From a virus (lineage: Duplodnaviria > Heunggongvirae > Uroviricota > Caudoviricetes), in IMG/VR virus record IMGVR_UViG_2734482570_000003: a stretch of 33,537 nucleotides of DNA. The stretch is one strand, 5' to 3'. Under the pieces are notes generated by a model. That model worked only from the letters and a program-made list of their open reading frames with translations, was not told the origin of the DNA and made no database searches. Positions 18,411-30,816 of this stretch are shown in pieces. Numbering within the stretch: position 1 is the first letter of the stretch; every line of letters begins with the position of its first letter. A program made the position numbers and the translations under genes.

Positions 18411-18575
18411 AATATCCTCCAAATTCATATAGTTAGTGGGTTATTACCCCTCAATGACACGAACTGTAACTCTGCCAAACGAACACATCCAGTGTTATTT
18501 TTCGCTTTTTAGTGAAATTTTTGATTTGCGTTGTTTTCTTGTTTTGGTGTATTTTATGGATATGGAGGCTATAAT

Positions 18576-18887
18576 ATGTTTAACGTGATAACCCACCCTG
18601 CAGCACTGGATGAACTGCTTGAACTACCAGATGATTTGCGAGGTCGCATGACCAGATTAATTGAGCGACTGGAGAAAGAAGGCAACAAACTGAAGATGCC
18701 CCATAGCCGTGTAATAGGTGGAGGGCTTTTTGAACTACGAGTAGGGGATAAAAACATCGCAAGAACGCTGTACGCCTACGCGACTGGTAACGAAATTTAT
18801 CTATTGCATGCATTTGTAAAAAAGACACAGAAAACACCGGTGAAGGCTATCGAAATCGCCAGAACTCGCCTGAAGGAGATGAACTGA
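18576..18887 (+). CDS. Type II toxin, RelE/ParE superfamily (HigB / Gp49-like)
   Basis: Track ORF 18531..18887; GGAGG 8 nt before the ATG at 18576; Gp49/HigB-like sequence pattern; toxin precedes antitoxin. Confidence 0.7.
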   Translation: MFNVITHPAALDELLELPDDLRGRMTRLIERLEKEGNKLKMPHSRVIGGGLFELRVGDKNIARTLYAYATGNEIYLLHAFVKKTQKTPVKAIEIARTRLKEMN

Positions 18888-19174
18888 TGAAAGCGAAAGG
18901 CATCCCGTTTAACGAAGTAAAAGAAAAACTCCTCAACACTCCAGAAGCCGTCAAAGGATATGAAGAGGCCGACAAAGAGCTGGAGATGGTCGAAATGTTA
19001 TACGAAATGAGGGAAAGAGCAGGTTTAACGAAATCAGCTCTGGCTGAACGAATGGGGTTGCGACCGTCAGCCATCAGCCGCCTGGAAAGCAATCCTTTAG
19101 GGGCAAGTATGAAAACTTTGGCTAAATATGCTCATGCCTGCGGCGCAACCATCGATATTCGCGCTGTTTATTAA
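18887..19174 (+). CDS. HTH XRE-family antitoxin (HigA-like)
   Basis: 95 aa; HTH segment LTKSALAERMGLRPSAISRLE; start overlaps the toxin stop (TGATG). Confidence 0.7.
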   Translation: MKAKGIPFNEVKEKLLNTPEAVKGYEEADKELEMVEMLYEMRERAGLTKSALAERMGLRPSAISRLESNPLGASMKTLAKYAHACGATIDIRAVY

Positions 19175-19216
19175 TTAGACTCTTTTACTACCCCGTCCAG
19201 AAGGGCGGGGTGTGCA

Positions 19217-19420
19217 TCAATGATGTGAACGCTCAACAGCGATAGTTTGCTGACAATGCTGGGCAATCTCTCGCGACATGTTGATGAGTCGTGAAACCTC
19301 ACCAATATGTAGGCTGGCTTCTGGAGAAGCCAGGGTGACGCTAACCAGATCCAGAACGGCGTCAATATCTCTTAAATTTGAATCGAGTTGTTCAAGAGTT
19401 GATACGGCTGCTTCAGACAT
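19217..19420 (-). CDS. Hypothetical protein
   Basis: 67-aa ORF convergent with the toxin-antitoxin pair; no recognisable motif. Confidence 0.3.
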   Translation of the reverse strand: MSEAAVSTLEQLDSNLRDIDAVLDLVSVTLASPEASLHIGEVSRLINMSREIAQHCQQTIAVERSHH

Positions 19421-19502
19421 TAAATCTCATACCATTTAACTAAAAAAGGTTATTTATACTGTATAAAATTACAGGGTAAAACTCAAACTTTACGGTCAAT
19501 TT

Positions 19503-19745
19503 TCAATGAATTAACTGCGTAAACTGCTGTGTGACCCGATACTTATGCTCTCTCCCTATGCCACGATCAACTTTCTCAAGAAGTCCAGTACGGACAGCAG
19601 AATCAAGCATCCTTTTAACAATTCTGCTATTTAACCCAACATCAAAAGAAAGCATCGAAGCGAAAACAAAACCATCACCACCATCAGAAAAGCTCTTTTC
19701 GCTCCGTTTTCGTATCATTTCAAAAAGCAATGCCTTTTTATCCAT
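19503..19745 (-). CDS. Small winged-helix DNA-binding protein (hypothetical)
   Basis: 80 aa; GGAGG RBS; wing-like RGIGREHKYRVT. Confidence 0.5.
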   Translation of the reverse strand: MDKKALLFEMIRKRSEKSFSDGGDGFVFASMLSFDVGLNSRIVKRMLDSAVRTGLLEKVDRGIGREHKYRVTQQFTQLIH

Positions 19746-19752
19746 TTATCCC

Positions 19753-19766
19753 TCCGTGACCAGTCA
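19753..19766. repeat. Palindrome family B CGTGAC-CA-GTCACG (copy 1 of 3)
   Basis: Perfect 6-bp inverted arms with a 2-bp centre, immediately upstream of the RBS of the 19503..19745 gene. Confidence 0.5.
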
Positions 19767-20090
19767 CGCTTTGAGCGCAAGTTTCAGCCTCGTGGTTGTA
19801 AGGTGGCATGACCCTTCGCCATCAAAAATGCATTCTGAAACAGGCATTTTTTGACCACATCGCGGGCAAGTAGTAGATAGCTGCTTCTGCAGCTCCTTAT
19901 AGTTTTTCCTGATCAGCAAACCAATGACTTCGTTCTCCGAATATGGAACTCGCCCTGGTCTACGCAATACACAAATTTCCCCCAACATACGTAACTCGTC
20001 AGGTTCTAGAATCCAGTCCCGTCTTGATGTGCCTTCCTTCTTCAACCGTTCCCTGCGTCTCCTTTGCCGTTCTGCCGGTGTCAGCGCCAT
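19764..20090 (-). CDS. Hypothetical protein with Arg-rich N-terminus and Cys cluster (zinc-ribbon-like)
   Basis: 108 aa; CPRCGQKMPVSECIFDGEGSCH. Confidence 0.45.
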   Translation of the reverse strand: MALTPAERQRRRRERLKKEGTSRRDWILEPDELRMLGEICVLRRPGRVPYSENEVIGLLIRKNYKELQKQLSTTCPRCGQKMPVSECIFDGEGSCHLTTTRLKLALKA

Positions 20091-20105
20091 AAATCCTCCT
20101 GAAAA

Positions 20106-20636
20106 TTACTTAACCCAATTAACTACACCGCCAGCGGCCACAACCGCCCTTTCACAGTCACGCTCATATCTCAAAGGTTGAAATACACCATCAATAAAAT
20201 ATTTATCTCCACCAAACGCTGCAGGAAGTGAAACAGAAAACTGAATATGACCATCCGGAGTTACCGGAGAGTTGCCAGCCAGTCTACGCAACACAGCCTT
20301 AACGGCCTCAATACGGTCATCATCAACTTTTTCTACAATATTGGAATTTAAATACTTCGAAGCCTTGCTATGCCAATCGCTGGTTTTAGGGTCTTGTCCA
20401 TCCATCAAACGCCAAGCTTCAGCGATTAACTCATAGCCAGTGACAGTGGCTTCCTGCGCATCACCAATAAGTCGTGTAATCTCTCTTTCAAGCCGACCGC
20501 CTAGCTCTGTTTTAGTGCAATGTTCTGACCAATCGCCAGCCTCAAGCAGCGCGAGAATGCTTAAAATATCGTCCAATAGAACGGTAGTATTATCGACTTC
20601 CTTCTGAAACTCACCGGCTACTGATTTATGCATCAT
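20106..20636 (-). CDS. Hypothetical protein sharing an AGNxPVTPDG segment with the 20847..21596 protein
   Basis: 176 aa; no other recognisable motif. Confidence 0.5.
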   Translation of the reverse strand: MMHKSVAGEFQKEVDNTTVLLDDILSILALLEAGDWSEHCTKTELGGRLEREITRLIGDAQEATVTGYELIAEAWRLMDGQDPKTSDWHSKASKYLNSNIVEKVDDDRIEAVKAVLRRLAGNSPVTPDGHIQFSVSLPAAFGGDKYFIDGVFQPLRYERDCERAVVAAGGVVNWVK

Positions 20637-20935
20637 TCGTCATCCTCATCTGAGTCATCCTCATCACAGGATGAGAGTAGTGGGTTAGTCATTCGCCCTA
20701 CTTGAGTGGCGTAGCCACGCCGACAGAGATTGCGCAGCACACTGTATATTTCGAACATCTCGGTTCGTTCATCACCAACATCAAGCTCAGATGCTATAGC
20801 GTGGCATTCAGTCGCGAGAGCCGATATTTTCTGAAATAACTCTGCTTTATTCACTCTTCGACTCCTGCGGCGGTTCTGGTAGTGGCATCCAGTGAGTTGC
20901 TTGCTCAATACCATTACCCGGCTTAATCGTTGCAT
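20633..20935 (-). CDS. Hypothetical protein with acidic C-terminal tail
   Basis: 100 aa ending CDEDDSDEDDE; start uncertain. Confidence 0.35.
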   Translation of the reverse strand: MQRLSRVMVLSKQLTGCHYQNRRRSRRVNKAELFQKISALATECHAIASELDVGDERTEMFEIYSVLRNLCRRGYATQVGRMTNPLLSSCDEDDSDEDDE

Positions 20936-21596
20936 CTCCGCGCCGAAAGGTGCTTCCGGTATAGCGTGCGGAGCATATTAGCGGTTCAACCAGAGAGCTA
21001 TCGAAATTCACCGAAATAAGCACGTTCTGGCCCTTTTCAGGCATTCGCTCACTACAGCTTATCCAACCATCCGGAGTTACCGGATAGTTGCCAGCCTCAT
21101 ACGCGACCCTTATCCAGTGCATAAGCATTTCAGTACTTACACATCCACAATCAACATCAATTTTGTCATGCTGCTGTTCCAGCCATTGCTCAAAAGTTAA
21201 CTTGTAAGTTTGGCTTACAGGTTTGGCTTCCAGTTCTGCTATGTGATTTTTGGCTGATTCCAACTCAATCGACAATTTTTCCAACTGCTCTTTATGATTT
21301 TTATATTCCTGATATGCGTGCCAAGACTGACCTTTGCGCACACTATCAGTGATATCAGTAATCTGTTCTGGTGTTAGCGTGGTCAGTGGCTGTGATGGGA
21401 AAATAAGCACTTTCCCGGAATCCCAATCAAAACCAGCGTGAATTGACTGAACCTCAACTGAAGGTGTTGAACCAATGCTGCCAGGCGAATGAACAACGAT
21501 TGTTACATCCATATCGCGACGATGGCTGTGGTTGTTGGACAAAATACGATTCAACAAAATACGATTCACCAACTCAGAAAATTTAGAAAATTTCAT
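20847..21596 (-). CDS. Hypothetical phage protein with DUF551-like C-terminal domain
   Basis: 249 aa; coiled-coil middle; C-terminal ...ATHWMPLPEPP resembles DUF551 as remembered. Confidence 0.5.
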   Translation of the reverse strand: MKFSKFSELVNRILLNRILSNNHSHRRDMDVTIVVHSPGSIGSTPSVEVQSIHAGFDWDSGKVLIFPSQPLTTLTPEQITDITDSVRKGQSWHAYQEYKNHKEQLEKLSIELESAKNHIAELEAKPVSQTYKLTFEQWLEQQHDKIDVDCGCVSTEMLMHWIRVAYEAGNYPVTPDGWISCSERMPEKGQNVLISVNFDSSLVEPLICSARYTGSTFRRGDATIKPGNGIEQATHWMPLPEPPQESKSE

Positions 21597-21961
21597 GCTG
21601 ATTCACCTTTCTCTGCTCTCTCCTGTCGGAACATCACTATCATCAGGTCGCCTTTTGTCGCTATCTTGGCTGTTGTGCCTGGCTCAATGCGGCTAAGTTC
21701 AAATGCGTCATAGAACGCCTCCAACGCTTTCTGGCGTTTTTCCTGTTTGCGGCGCTTTCCCCACTGCTTTAGAAAAACAGAGGCCGCCCACTTCCCCGCA
21801 CTGAACATGATGTAAAACCAACCGAGAAGTGCCAGACCGGTATTTAGGGCCGTATCGATCGTTATCGTGGTGTCGATATTCACTACGCCACCTCCTGAAA
21901 ATTTCCCTGATAAAACGCCAACACACGCTGCATAACTTCGCTCTTCCGACAATCGTGACAA
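21593..21961 (-). CDS. Hypothetical protein, possible single TM segment
   Basis: 122-aa ORF overlapping both neighbours; hydrophobic LALLGWFYIMFSAGKWAASVF; true start unclear. Confidence 0.3.
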   Translation of the reverse strand: MSRLSEERSYAACVGVLSGKFSGGGVVNIDTTITIDTALNTGLALLGWFYIMFSAGKWAASVFLKQWGKRRKQEKRQKALEAFYDAFELSRIEPGTTAKIATKGDLMIVMFRQERAEKGESA

Positions 21962-22302
21962 ATCATGTTCAAGCGCCTGTCGTAACGACGTATTTCTCCG
22001 TCAGGTAATGACCAGATAAGGTCTGGATCAACCACTACCGATTTCTTCGGCTTTACTCTTGATAGTTTTTTACGGGCGTTTTGCCAGTCCTTGCGTGCTT
22101 GTGCAGACAGAAATATCCCGGAGCCAGAGATATACAAATCACCGCTGGCAGCAAGCTCTCTTGATAAACGACTAACAGCACACCGGCTAATACCAGTTTC
22201 ATCCGCAAGTTGCCTAACCGTTCCTCGTCCATTCAGGCGCACGAGTTCCACAATTTGTTTATTCAGTTCTTCCCTCTGTTCTGGTGTAAAAGCCTTTGCC
22301 AT
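21883..22302 (-). CDS. Putative winged-helix DNA-binding protein
   Basis: 139 aa; HTH-like RQLADETGISRCAVSRLSREL; C-terminal CHDC. Confidence 0.45.
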   Translation of the reverse strand: MAKAFTPEQREELNKQIVELVRLNGRGTVRQLADETGISRCAVSRLSRELAASGDLYISGSGIFLSAQARKDWQNARKKLSRVKPKKSVVVDPDLIWSLPDGEIRRYDRRLNMICHDCRKSEVMQRVLAFYQGNFQEVA

Positions 22303-22901
22303 TACGATTCTCCTTGCCCTTTTACAAGACGGGAGAAAATTGCGGATACATATTTAGCCTGATGAATAGCATCAGCCAGGGCATTGTGTCGTTCGCCATC
22401 AAATGGCATATCTTTTTTAGGATTAAAACCAATAAACTGACCAAGATTAACGATTGTTCGAACATCCTGATCATTAAAATATTCCCACGGACAGGCTAAG
22501 CCAACGCGCTCATAAGCACCGCGTAAAATTACATTATCGAACGTTGCTCCATTTCCCCATACTTTCAATTTTTTTAAATTACATGCATGGCAAGTAATAA
22601 AGTGTGATAATTCAAAAAGTGCATCCTTAATATCAAGGGCATCATTAGTACAAATAGCGGCTCTGGCTTACTTGCTCTGTTTCAACCACCATAAAATGGT
22701 ATCACCATCGGCGATACCACCATTCAACATCGAGCTTCTGAGATTCACTGGCACATAAAAAGTAGGACCTAATTCCTCACTTTCTGGAGAAAAAAACACT
22801 GCCCCGATAGAAACAATTGGAGCACATGTGTTAGTACCCATTGTTTCAAGGTCAATCATTACATCAGACCGTTTCCTGTCGTAAATAATCTGATTAGTCA
22901 C
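22302..22901 (-). pseudogene. DEDDh-type 3-prime-5-prime exonuclease interrupted by a single in-frame TAA
   Basis: ORFs 22668..22901 and 22302..22568 are in the same frame; the 33 codons between them are open; Exo I-like motif (MIDLETMGT) is in the first part and Exo III-like motif (HNALADAIHQAKY) in the second. Confidence 0.6.
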
Positions 22902-22924
22902 GAATAATTCTCCTCAACGTTTAT

Positions 22925-23152
22925 CTATACCCAAATTTTCTGTTGATATGTTCTGGATGGTTTTGGCGTTCTTTCTGATTCAGGTAAATGAACATAAACG
23001 CAATATCCATCACCTAAAAAATCAGAACGAACAACCAGAACTTTCTTACCACGCCGCCGATAAGTATCTGAAAGACGCTCTGCTTCATCATGCGTCATCG
23101 GCCCCTGCTTAAATGGCGTTATTTTCATTTTCTTGTGCGACCACGGTCGCAC
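22925..23152 (-). CDS. Hypothetical small protein
   Basis: 75-aa ORF; start uncertain. Confidence 0.3.
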   Translation of the reverse strand: MRPWSHKKMKITPFKQGPMTHDEAERLSDTYRRRGKKVLVVRSDFLGDGYCVYVHLPESERTPKPSRTYQQKIWV

Positions 23153-23429
23153 CCTCTCTGATTTCCAAGTAACGCTTAATCCAAAGATTTTCTATATGCT
23201 TATTACCTGGCTGATTTGATAAATACCAATCGGCAATTACAGACTGCTTATTACTATCTGGTCGTGTCCTGTAACCACAAGTTGGACACCAGATAACATA
23301 TTCATTTCTTACCCCCGAATACCTTAATTCTGGCTTCGACGGTTTCCTGAACATAACTTGTTTACAAAGACAGAATGGCACTTCCTGCCCGATGGCGTTT
23401 GATGATTTCACTGCGCTTCTCCGCCGCAT
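23109..23429 (-). CDS. Hypothetical protein with CxC...CxxC motif
   Basis: 106 aa; FCLCKQ ... WCPTCGY. Confidence 0.4.
   Translation of the reverse strand: MRRRSAVKSSNAIGQEVPFCLCKQVMFRKPSKPELRYSGVRNEYVIWCPTCGYRTRPDSNKQSVIADWYLSNQPGNKHIENLWIKRYLEIREGATVVAQENENNAI
23136..23151. repeat. sopC-like centromere palindrome TGCGACC-AC-GGTCGCA (copy 3)
   Basis: Identical 16-mer to copy 1; lies in the 3-prime end of the 23109..23429 ORF. Confidence 0.6.
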
Positions 23430-24072
23430 TTAATAATGCAGTTCGATTTAAGCTCAGACATCGCGACTTAATTAAAAGCCAGCGTTCTTTATAATCTTGT
23501 CTCCAGCTATCAATAGATATATTCAGTAGAAAACTCAGATGCCTGTCCTGTTCTCTCTCATCAACTGCCTCAGCACACGTAAGTTCTGATTTAACCTGTT
23601 GTGCCGCGTAATAAATCAATTTCCGCATGGCTTTTTTCGTGGAGGCCTTCATTTTTTTAAAGCCGCCCCCCGAATGAGCAACCAGAAAATCAAGCCATAA
23701 CCACTGACAAACAATCACATCATTGTTGTAATCAGGCTTGCATCCGTAGCAATAATAAAGCCAGGCTGATTCCTCGTTATTCAACTGACCAATAGCCCTG
23801 CGCCAGCTGGCGCTCTGAAAATCAATATCAGTGAGCAACATTGATGATTGTTTAAATGTTTTCCCCTGGTGGAATCTAACCGGCTCAGCAGGAACGGACA
23901 CTTCGTATGAGTTATCATCCCCCACACTGATTGACCGGACTGGTTTATTGTTAAACCGTCCTGATCTACCGAGACGCATCTGCTCAAGCTGGACCTCCAG
24001 AATGCCACGCTGGCGATAATGAACATCAGCCAATGCCGTAGAGACGCAGCTGCGTATATACTCAAGCTCCAC
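23362..24072 (-). CDS. Possible late-gene antiterminator Q-like protein (assignment by position only)
   Basis: 236-aa ORF immediately downstream of cro, where N15-type immunity regions carry Q; no motif verified. Confidence 0.35.
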   Translation of the reverse strand: MELEYIRSCVSTALADVHYRQRGILEVQLEQMRLGRSGRFNNKPVRSISVGDDNSYEVSVPAEPVRFHQGKTFKQSSMLLTDIDFQSASWRRAIGQLNNEESAWLYYCYGCKPDYNNDVIVCQWLWLDFLVAHSGGGFKKMKASTKKAMRKLIYYAAQQVKSELTCAEAVDEREQDRHLSFLLNISIDSWRQDYKERWLLIKSRCLSLNRTALLNAAEKRSEIIKRHRAGSAILSL

Positions 24073-24283
24073 GCTTACGACTCTCCTTAATCGACTGCTT
24101 TACCCGCCGAGTTGTAAAGTCACTCTTCAGCTTATAAGCAGTACGAACTTCAATATCGCTTTGCCGCAATGAAGGAATCTCTCCAGCGGTTAACCATTGG
24201 TAAACAGCTCCGGGTGTTACACCTACCCCTGCCGCTGCTTTTTCTACACTGCCAAAATGGCGAATAAGTTCTTCTGGTTTCAT
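24062..24283 (-). CDS. cro: Cro-like HTH regulator
   Basis: Track ORF 24062..24310; probable start MKPEEL; HTH AAAGVGVTPGAVYQWL; divergent from the repressor gene. Confidence 0.7.
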   Translation of the reverse strand: MKPEELIRHFGSVEKAAAGVGVTPGAVYQWLTAGEIPSLRQSDIEVRTAYKLKSDFTTRRVKQSIKESRKRGA

Positions 24284-24310
24284 GTTGTTATTATAAACAA
24301 TAAACAACAA

Positions 24311-24374: not shown

Positions 24375-24971
24375 ATGAAAACACGAGGCGAACGACTGAA
24401 AGCACGCCGTTTAGAGATGAAGCTGACGTTGCGAGAAGTTGCTGAGGCTGTCGATATCTCTATAGCAGGCGTCCAAAACTTAGAACGTGGCGACGTAATG
24501 CCGTCACTGGAGATAGGTATTGCCCTGGCTAAGTGCTTACGCAAGCCAGTGCATTGGGTGCTATATGGGACAGAATATGACCCTGATCGCATTCCTGTTA
24601 TTGGCACAACTGAAAGTGGGCCGGATGAAGAGTGGAAGCCGGGACAGGTTCCAAATACTGAGCGATTCCTGCCATTCATCAGCCAGCGCAATACTGTGTA
24701 TGCGTTAACTATCAGCAATCTTACGCAGGGAAACTATCAGCCAGGCGATTTTCTCCTGGTCGATTCTGCGCTGGAACTGGTCCCCGGCGAGGATGTTCTG
24801 GTTCGTGATACTGCAGGAAATATCACTATCCAGCGCCTGGCCCGTTTTGATGATGAAAATTACTATCTGGATGGAACAAACTCACAACGCGCCATCTTCA
24901 GGAAAAGCGATCTTGAATTTGTTCACCAAATAGTCGGAACGATCAAATCATTCATGGTTGAGGGTAGATGA
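24375..24971 (+). CDS. cB: Prophage repressor (CI/CB-like; N-terminal HTH, C-terminal LexA/S24-like domain)
   Basis: 198 aa; HTH LTLREVAEAVDISIAGVQNLERG; C-terminal GDFLLVDSALELVPGEDVLV resembles an S24 fold; divergent from cro with operators between. Confidence 0.8.
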   Translation: MKTRGERLKARRLEMKLTLREVAEAVDISIAGVQNLERGDVMPSLEIGIALAKCLRKPVHWVLYGTEYDPDRIPVIGTTESGPDEEWKPGQVPNTERFLPFISQRNTVYALTISNLTQGNYQPGDFLLVDSALELVPGEDVLVRDTAGNITIQRLARFDDENYYLDGTNSQRAIFRKSDLEFVHQIVGTIKSFMVEGR

Positions 24972-30574: not shown

Positions 30575-30653
30575 CTCCGCTACGGTAAATCCCGTAGCCG
30601 GGCGTAGGAACCCGAGTAAATGAAGCGCACAACACGCGCCAGCGTGTTTTTTT
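30575..30653 (+). ncRNA. Candidate small regulatory RNA / leader transcript (c4-type antisense RNA analogue)
   Basis: Non-coding stretch with hairpin GCTACGG-TAAATC-CCGTAGC and intrinsic terminator ACACGC-GCCA-GCGTGT plus T6 (30632-30653); GCGTAGGAAC at 30602 recurs at 30768 in the downstream leader. Confidence 0.3.
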
Positions 30654-30816
30654 GTGTGTAAAATCTGCGTACACCAAATTTATGGTGGCTCAGATGGGGC
30701 AGCTTTTAGCTGGCCGGTTTCTTCGTTTACCGGTATTCCTACCCCCGTCTGGGCTACCGCCATATAGAGCGTAGGAACTCTGGTGGTAGCACGACCAATT
30801 AAACGGAGTGCATACC

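Follow-up and report, generated by a model that had tools for sequence, protein, structure and literature searches.

Mosaic accessory cargo and a putative AntC switch in the early region of an N15-like phage-plasmid

What is encoded by the run of small genes between the toxin–antitoxin pair and the exonuclease gene of an N15-like linear phage-plasmid, and do these genes form a system of their own? We addressed this question for positions 19217-22302 of IMG/VR record IMGVR_UViG_2734482570_000003, a 33,537-nucleotide (nt) stretch of viral DNA that we refer to as the window and in which an initial annotation had singled out this block as a candidate location for an unrecognised accessory function. 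Our analysis favours, with reasonable confidence, a composite interval: the distal end of an early operon repressed by CB, made up of mosaic cargo of lambdoid type, two backbone proteins that probably bind DNA and an AntC switch. Read this way, the region is ordinary mosaic accessory cargo of a common phage-plasmid together with a known but unannotated switch, and it matters little as a discovery.

Identity and gene content of the interval

Megablast, the best phage matches and gene order all identify the window as part of an Escherichia coli N15-like (Ravinvirus) linear phage-plasmid. In megablast, positions 19000-22950 match the linear 47.6-kb E. coli plasmid pCAVP367-48 over their full length with one mismatch, and other plasmids of 47-81 kb give similar matches; near-identical copies of the region (98-100%, full length) occur on at least five public plasmids. 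The best phage matches are YDC107_1, which is classified as Ravinvirus (97.6% identity over 78% of the query), and PhiR46_1. Over 9951 bases compared, pCAVP367-48 and the window differ at two positions, A22670 (C there) and G18523 (A there), the latter just upstream of the toxin open reading frame (ORF). The window is inverted relative to the N15 map. It runs from tail, head and lysis genes through a methylase gene, gp51/gp50, the RelE/ParE–HTH pair, the block, the exonuclease gene, Q, cro, cB and repA to the protelomerase gene, with a gene order that matches N15 genes 38-49 and phiKO2.

The initial annotation described seven co-directional genes between the toxin–antitoxin pair (18531-19174, plus strand) and the exonuclease gene (22302-22901, minus strand). 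Minus-strand ORFs do occupy 19217-22302 completely, and the genes are real, but they number eight: a 67-amino-acid (aa) ORF at 19217-19420 had gone unlisted. Its end is the very coordinate, 19217, at which that annotation let the block begin. The eight genes are as follows.

19217-19420, minus strand: 67-aa putative orthologue of N15 AntC (56% identity; phrog_6301, phrog_10889)
19503-19745, minus strand: 80-aa orthologue of N15 gp47, possibly a winged helix (phrog_13995, 4.4e-47)
19764-20090, minus strand: 108-aa orthologue of N15 gp46 with a basic N-terminal helix, a predicted ribbon-helix-helix core and a C-terminal Cys4 zinc ribbon
20106-20636, minus strand: 176-aa chimeric EaA-type protein (phrog_20174 N terminus and a C-terminal module of N15-like plasmids)
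20633-20854, minus strand: 73-aa acidic protein with a DEDDSDEDDE tail and a GTG start (phrog_4220; 222 nt in RefSeq)
20847-21596, minus strand: 249-aa Ea22/EaA-type protein with an N-terminal beta module, a predicted long helix (residues 92-124), a helical linker module and a DUF551 C terminus (PF04448, phrog_368, phrog_60/924)
21593-21883, minus strand: 96-aa DUF4752 protein with a GTG start (PF15944, phrog_667; 291 nt in RefSeq)
21883-22302, minus strand: 139-aa DUF977 protein with an N-terminal winged helix and a Ren-like C-terminal motif (PF06163, phrog_142)

Each gene matches a PHROG family (E values of 1e-32 to 1e-72) and has a Shine–Dalgarno sequence at its start, and the exact proteins are found on 867 to more than 1000 public contigs. 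Two of the lengths first reported, 100 and 122 aa, did not hold: profile coverage, RefSeq and the relatives place the true starts at GTG codons (20854 and 21883), giving proteins of 73 and 96 aa. The phrog_4220 profile (1.4e-41) covers residues 28-100 of the 100-aa ORF, and both PF15944 (1.2e-40) and phrog_667 (3.4e-42) cover only residues 27-119 of the 122-aa ORF. The surplus N-terminal residues of the 100-aa ORF come from reading the DUF551 coding region in the wrong frame, and ORF L0064 of phage 933W is headed by the same spurious peptide. Plus-strand ORFs of 107, 85 and 88 aa within the block match no family and were set aside as spurious.

From the exonuclease gene to the gp47-like gene, neighbouring genes either share 1-8 nt or are separated by 15-18 nt; the start of the 139-aa gene overlaps the exonuclease stop by 1 nt, and the 73-aa gene overlaps its upstream neighbour by 8 nt. 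The block holds seven promoter-like sites against 9.8 expected from shuffled sequence, none of them upstream of a gene start, and its weak minus-strand terminator-like sites all fall inside coding sequence. Rfam and tRNA scans of the block found nothing. From this tight coupling, from promoter-like sites that are no commoner than in shuffled sequence and from terminator-like sites confined to coding sequence, we infer a single transcript running from cro to gp47 and initiated at the CB-controlled promoter P_R.

A variable cargo slot and its mosaic joint

Comparison with N15 and phiKO2 separates the interval into two parts. The three elements share, within it, only gp46, gp47, the 67-aa ORF and the flanking toxin–antitoxin pair, and the genes between the exonuclease gene and gp46 are unrelated among them. 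N15 genes 42-47 and phiKO2 genes 40-46 thereby resemble the window in their backbone (cro, Q, exonuclease, variable genes, gp46, gp47, antC and a convergent toxin–antitoxin pair) and differ from it in their cargo, which consists of gp42-45.1 in N15 and of gp40-44 in phiKO2, including a DNA methyltransferase gene. The exonuclease of the window also differs from that of the N15 and phiKO2 telomere phages, being shorter and of the Rv2179c-like type. Among the relatives examined, the slot between the exonuclease gene and gp46 has at least six distinct fillings. By this comparison, 20106-22302 is a variable accessory-cargo slot, filled differently in each relative, and the three distal genes (gp46-like, gp47-like and 67-aa) are conserved N15 backbone. 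N15 gp45, just upstream of gp46, carries EaA-type PHROG modules, so that an Ea22/EaA-type gene at this position is a recurring feature. The paper on the 'telocin' of telomere phages does not describe cargo hotspots.

The suggestion that the block houses something novel can be weighed against this distribution. In its strongest form it holds that the whole block, or a core of DUF977, DUF4752 and Ea22-type genes, is a single unrecognised multi-gene system serving defence, exclusion or plasmid maintenance. In its favour, the genes lie close together and are coupled in translation, and the variable slot adjoins a toxin–antitoxin pair. Moreover, in the plasmids examined from E. coli and E. albertii, the exonuclease–DUF977–DUF4752 and gp46–(gp47)–67-aa segments are constant and only the Ea22-type stretch varies. 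Elsewhere, however, DUF977 follows replication genes with neither DUF4752 nor an Ea22-type neighbour, and P1-like and SSU5-like elements have DUF4752 and the 73-aa gene within Ea22-type arrays that lack DUF977; as DUF977 and DUF4752 are not neighbours outside N15-like plasmids, a conserved DUF977–DUF4752 module was likewise rejected. The cargo genes are wholly absent from N15 and phiKO2, relatives delete, fuse or fragment the middle genes, and expression from a repressor-controlled lytic operon argues against a function in the lysogen. A Pfam scan found no enzymatic domain in any block protein, NCBIfam gave no match above threshold, and PADLOC-DB 2.0 returned only noise for all eight proteins (E >= 0.002; HTH parts of CasR/Csa3, and AriA). 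Because the parts occur separately elsewhere, are fused or lost in relatives and carry no enzymatic or defence signature, we consider a coherent novel system highly unlikely. The earlier call of an accessory location thus survives as a variable slot at 20106-22302, whereas the novel system does not, since all genes belong to widespread, catalogued phage families. What they largely share with early or nin-region proteins of relatives is family membership and synteny, not characterised function.

The two largest cargo proteins are modular. In the 249-aa protein, PF04448 (DUF551) covers residues 177-244 with a score of 85.9 bits (3.5e-24; cut-off 22); the protein has phrog_368 in common with lambda Ea22 and phrog_60/924 with 933W L0065. 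Residues 1-124 are 89.5% identical to gp60 of a Punavirus (P1-like) phage, and the EaA-like protein L0065, from the exo-xis region of 933W, shows 77% identity to residues 109-245, so the module boundaries are supported by mosaic comparisons. An AlphaFold2 (AF2) model has a mean predicted local distance difference test score (pLDDT) of 58.6, with helix 92-124 at about 75, a confident DUF551 beta domain and an N-terminal part below 50. Searching the PDB with this model in Foldseek yielded no match with an E value below 0.07, and hence no fold for DUF551 or the N-terminal module; sequence searches of the PDB found no relatives of the 249-aa, 139-aa or 108-aa proteins. Near the N terminus, a perfect 15-nt tandem duplication at 21539-21568 (ACAAAATACGATTCA twice) encodes NRILL-NRILS; it is present in plasmid LR883007 and absent from YDC107_1 and the P1-like homologue, and is therefore polymorphic. 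In the 176-aa protein, residues 1-117 match phrog_20174, a 284-position 'EaA' profile (E=5e-72), and the last 57 residues (120-176) are 96% identical to the C terminus of a 219-224-aa protein encoded by a single gene in relatives; the halves are joined through an AGNSPVTPDG linker.

This architecture recalls the exo-xis ('ea') region of lambda and Stx phages, which likewise occupies an early-operon position beside a nuclease gene. Ea22 and 933W L0065 (P22 EaA-like) have a three-part build of variable N-terminal module, long helix and swappable C-terminal domain to which the 249-aa protein may conform, and the 'V2' variant of Ea22 ends, like the 249-aa protein, in DUF551. Two differences stand out: the genes of the window belong to the cro-Q (rightward-type) operon on a linear plasmid that does not integrate, rather than sitting between exo and xis, and they form a tandem pair with a duplicated linker. 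The Ea22 family is described as mosaic, with portable C-terminal domains that include DUF551 (PMC10834534), and its sole experimental phenotype is a pro-lysogenic bias in lambda and Stx phages (PMC7093339, PMC10834534). By analogy, the Ea22-type proteins of the window may bias the lysis–lysogeny decision.

The initial annotation had pointed to an AGNxPVTPDG segment common to the 176-aa and 249-aa proteins, and this observation proved to mark a direct repeat.

21066-21096, no strand assigned: first copy of a 31-bp direct repeat; in the 249-aa gene it codes for the AGNxPVTPDG linker between domains (30/31 identical to the second copy)
20250-20280, no strand assigned: second copy, in the 176-aa gene (816 bp from the first)

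In YDC107_1, PhiR46_1 and LR883007 the site holds a single gene of 219-224 aa, which corresponds to residues 1-186 of the 249-aa protein and residues 120-176 of the 176-aa protein joined exactly at the linker; the window therefore holds an extra 816-bp module, in which the 73-aa gene is flanked by the DUF551 domain and the N-terminal portion of an EaA gene. PhiR41_1, an SSU5-like phage-plasmid, and a P1-like plasmid have the same order (DUF551 gene, 73-aa gene and a 284-aa EaA gene). Of about 28 N15-like plasmids in PLSDB, about 8 carry the module, and copies 97-98.5% identical to it lie on SSU5-like phage-plasmids of 108-110 kb from E. coli and Shigella; other relatives carry further recombinants, fragments or up to four genes at the site. 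Judged from these alignments, the 31-bp linker sequence is the joint at which N- and C-terminal modules swap, and it offers a concrete case of module exchange among phage-plasmid classes and prophages.

RefSeq flags the 176-aa gene as a partial pseudogene (PGAP, pCAVP367-48), which raises the possibility that the middle of the block is decaying recombination debris, that is, chimeric or fragmentary ORFs without function that are carried passively. Annotated fragments of DUF551 and Ea22-type genes at the site in relatives, and a premature stop in the neighbouring exonuclease gene of this copy, point the same way. Yet the 176-, 73- and 249-aa ORFs are intact, have Shine–Dalgarno sequences and are connected by ATGA or GTGAATAA overlaps. 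The joint falls in an inter-domain linker, so that whole modules are preserved, and identical 176-aa and 73-aa proteins occur on 867 and more than 1000 public contigs, respectively. Pure decay is quite unlikely, given ORFs that are intact, coupled and widely conserved. The pseudogene flag itself can be wrong, as the sequence is that of an intact, translationally coupled ORF with its joint between domains, and flags placed by annotation pipelines at such joints may more generally be errors. At the opposite extreme, Ea22/EaA-type genes could be a cassette-shuffling repertoire, comparable to polymorphic toxin cassettes, in which the 31-bp linker serves as a universal recombination joint across N15-like, P1-like and SSU5-like phage-plasmids and lambdoid prophages, and co-resident elements swap C-terminal effector domains, DUF551 among them, onto various N-terminal modules and so diversify early host-targeting or anti-immunity proteins; we think this broad generalisation unlikely.

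The remaining cargo genes are smaller. In the 139-aa protein, PF06163 spans residues 1-136 (1.1e-29; 103.6 bits against a cut-off of 22.1), and phrog_142 is matched at 2.7e-42 by this protein and at 1.6e-41 by lambda Ren. Pairwise, the two proteins align through a C-terminal motif (E=9e-6), N-x-I/V-x2-CR-x-S-x2-M-x-RVLA-x-Y, and their direct similarity is confined to about 20 residues. DUF977 genes of lambdoid phages lie directly after the replication genes, which is the position of ren in lambda. In contrast, the gene in the window adjoins the exonuclease gene and encodes 139 rather than 96 aa. Records label the family 'LygF' or 'Ren-like exclusion protein'; the former is apparently a bare gene name, the microbial literature matches being limited to two Salmonella genome announcements that name it in their abstracts. 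Ren is said to protect lambda from Rex exclusion, as ascribed to Toothman and Herskowitz in 1980, and the Ren-family protein of the window may by analogy counter exclusion. The statement that no block gene maps to a canonical lambdoid early function was consequently wrong in part: the 139-aa protein shares a PHROG with Ren, and the 249- and 176-aa proteins are of Ea22/EaA type.

The DUF4752 protein shares 85% identity with gp61 of a P1-like phage, whose gene is surrounded by Ea22-type genes. It has a hydrophobic N-terminal segment followed by a Lys/Arg-rich stretch (KRRKQEKRQK) and is possibly a membrane anchor; the earlier membrane call is backed to this extent only, by a modest hydropathy peak of 1.27. 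The 73-aa gene sits between Ea22-type genes in SSU5-like and P1-like elements. In the literature that was searched, DUF977 is mentioned only as a winged helix in fusions with Fic domains, and DUF551 only as a portable domain.

The variable genes could, alternatively, be a counter-defence set, in which early proteins neutralise host or prophage immunity: the Ren-like protein would act against Rex-type abortive infection and a Lar-like protein against restriction, and the Ea22/EaA-type proteins with swappable C termini would be inhibitors or decoys shaped by an arms race. An early-operon location would fit, and the PHROG shared with Ren (reportedly protective against Rex), the Lar-like ORF in the same operon, the methyltransferase in the equivalent slot of phiKO2, the rapid exchange of modules at the linker and the many alternative fillings speak for it. 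On the other side, we found no homology to characterised anti-defence proteins, and a search of the literature found nothing linking DUF4752, DUF551 or the 73-aa protein to immunity. The only experimental phenotype of the Ea22 family is the pro-lysogenic bias cited above, and mosaicism is general in lambdoid accessory regions and not in itself a sign of an arms race. As an account of the interval this is possible but doubtful; a counter-defence role for part of the cargo is plausible.

In the composite reading that we prefer, recombination with lambdoid prophages, P1-like phage-plasmids and SSU5-like phage-plasmids would have brought in the genes of the slot at 20106-22302 and rearranged them. 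The lysogen would not express them; their expression would begin soon after infection or induction, once repression is lifted. By analogy with lambda Ren and Ea22, the products would tune early development, through exclusion resistance or lysis–lysogeny bias, rather than serve the lysogen.

The conserved backbone and a candidate AntC switch

Downstream of the slot, the segment 19503-20090 would encode two regulators, a gp46-like DNA binder and a gp47-like possible winged helix. The 108-aa protein is 80% identical to N15 gp46, and a Foldseek search of its model against BFVD gave only a weak zinc-finger match at the C terminus; its predicted ribbon-helix-helix core and its zinc ribbon make it a putative DNA-binding regulator. 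The identical, intact ORF in pCAVP367-48 (NZ_CP145143.1, 3768-4091, corresponding to window 19764-20090; 100% identity) was left unannotated by PGAP. The 80-aa protein is 67% identical to N15 gp47; the winged helix initially proposed for it finds weak matches only. In loci L005-L008 (around positions 2006-2161) the gp47-like gene lacks about 87 nt internally and its flanks have diverged; it is called as a 51-aa ORF in one of the four records and uncalled in the others, which suggests that the gene is dispensable in that lineage. To judge from their sequences, both proteins are probably regulators. The predicted ribbon-helix-helix fold had also raised the idea of a gp46–gp47 toxin–antitoxin pair, which found no support, distant gp46 relatives having other neighbours.

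The last gene of the backbone is the 67-aa ORF that had gone unlisted. Two further features bear on its role.

19457-19476, no strand assigned: LexA (SOS) box CTGT-N8-ACAG, TACTGTATAAAATTACAGGG (15/20 against the consensus)
24375-24971, plus strand: divergent CB repressor gene (HTH_3 and a sub-threshold S24 match)

The 67-aa protein aligns over 63 aa with an unannotated 68-aa ORF of N15 (39619-39822) at the same map position, and both match phrog_6301 and the anti-repressor family phrog_10889 (1.8e-35 and 6.9e-8, respectively, for the window protein). The SOS box precedes the 67-aa gene by 36 nt, and no other good box is present in the 33.5 kb of the window. It falls in the spacer of, or overlaps, the hexamers TTTACC-16-TATAAA and TTGAGT-17-TACAGT, which were read by eye; a consensus promoter scan lists none there. 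Box and ORF are kept together in the E. coli relatives that have the region (L001, L002 and L004-L008) and in N15, and gp47 of phiKO2 is the same gene, preceded by a box with one altered half-site (ATGT). The N15 genome has only two good SOS boxes, one before ORF 39619-39822 and the other before the umuD-like gene 26. A second CTGT-N8-ACAG in the window, at 2059-2074 (CTGTCATCATGGACAG), lies inside a structural gene, has a GC-rich spacer, scores 12/20 and is probably a chance match. The reference annotation of N15 (NC_001901, 39562-39822; locus L003, 15563-15823) has no feature for either the box or the 68-aa ORF. Elsewhere the gene appears as 'Gp47' in phiKO2, as 'putative gp47' in YDC107_1 and as 'hypothetical protein' in the clusters and records examined.

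The repressor with which this gene would be paired is a divergently encoded CB protein, 78% identical to N15 CB. Its HTH_3 match is clear, and its Peptidase_S24 match is partial and below the Pfam threshold (21.3 against 23.3 bits), which fits a non-cleavable CB that would need an antirepressor. The N15 repressor is described as non-proteolytic (PMC10432266). According to passages in PMC4488713 and PMC3121763 that cite Mardanov and Ravin 2007, induction of N15 begins with antC, a locus distinct from immA and immB; the same passages present AntC as a LexA-controlled antirepressor that inactivates CB, like Tum of phage 186 (PMC4488713, PMC3121763). We conclude from map position, family membership and the adjacent box that 19217-19420 is probably an AntC orthologue with a putative LexA operator. 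It shares with the presumed N15 AntC its small size (67-68 aa), acidic character and location between gp47 and a convergent toxin–antitoxin pair, an SOS box in the promoter region, and an N15-type CB with a degenerate S24 domain as putative partner. Its proposed logic is that of Tum of coliphage 186 and of GfoA/GfhA of the Gifsy prophages.

The segment 19217-19476 would then work as an induction switch. LexA would occupy the SOS box of the antC promoter until DNA damage leads to its removal; AntC would then be made and would inactivate the non-cleavable CB, opening the early operon. As the N15 reference carries no annotation for this presumed SOS-controlled antirepressor, surveys of these elements, which are clinically common in E. 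coli, Shigella and Klebsiella, will miss the induction switch.

Several points weigh against the composite reading as set out here. The identity between the 67-aa protein and the N15 ORF is only 56%, and the equation of ORF 39619-39822 with antC comes from the SOS-box argument and PHROG similarity, not from published coordinates. Read-through from P_R as far as 19503 is deduced from the spacing of genes and signals. 'Ea22-type' denotes a relationship of architecture and PHROG membership: PF13935 (Ead_Ea22) gave no match at E<=1 for the 249-aa or 176-aa protein, although some DUF551 relatives (P0208, P0209) do carry it, and the model of the 249-aa protein is poor outside DUF551. The label 'Ren-like' predicts a phenotype and not a biochemistry. 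A literature search found no functional study of DUF4752, DUF977 or DUF551; the activities proposed for all of the proteins are predictions.

Flanking genes and elements

The genes on either side of the block, and two RNA-level features, are the following.

22302-22901, minus strand: gene for an Rv2179c-like 3'-5' exonuclease, directly upstream of the block (PF16473 matches both halves)
23109-23429, minus strand: 106-aa Lar-like restriction-alleviation ORF (phrog_6795, 1.5e-45; Pfam Lar below threshold)
23362-24072, minus strand: Q (Phage_antiter_Q, 4e-84)
24062-24310, minus strand: cro (P22_Cro, 2.5e-22)
18531-19174, plus strand: Gp49-like (PF05973) RelE/ParE-type toxin and HTH_3 antitoxin, convergent with the block
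19187-19213, no strand assigned: GC-rich hairpin between the convergent antC-like and antitoxin genes (minimum free energy -15.2 kcal/mol, z = -2.25)
30579-30764, plus strand: Rfam isrK (62.5 bits) followed directly by C4 antisense RNA (73.6 bits)

Together, cro, Q and the Lar-like ORF (23109-24310) form the upstream part of the same leftward operon, in the order of N15 genes 38-47. The Lar-like ORF overlaps the 3' end of Q and is conserved at 79% in N15 (around 35653-35970) and 72% in phiKO2; it is unannotated in both the N15 reference and the RefSeq record of pCAVP367-48. In the exonuclease gene, an in-frame TAA (22668-22670, minus strand) arises where the window has A22670 and pCAVP367-48 has C, changing GAA to TAA and splitting the gene into ORFs of 77 and 88 aa. 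Over the 81 bases around this codon, none of the 17 complete E. coli genomes with the segment is identical to the window; the stop reflects either a nonsense mutation private to this copy or a sequencing error.

At the other end, the toxin–antitoxin pair is 85-86% identical to N15 gp49/gp48, and we take it to be the tad-ata-type stabilisation module described for N15. The hairpin between this pair and the antC-like gene is kept in the E. coli relatives and not in N15. It was rejected as a canonical intrinsic terminator, having no U-tract on either strand, and is a possible transcript end. The isrK/C4 element is presumably the small processed RNA of an N15-type secondary immunity (immA) region.

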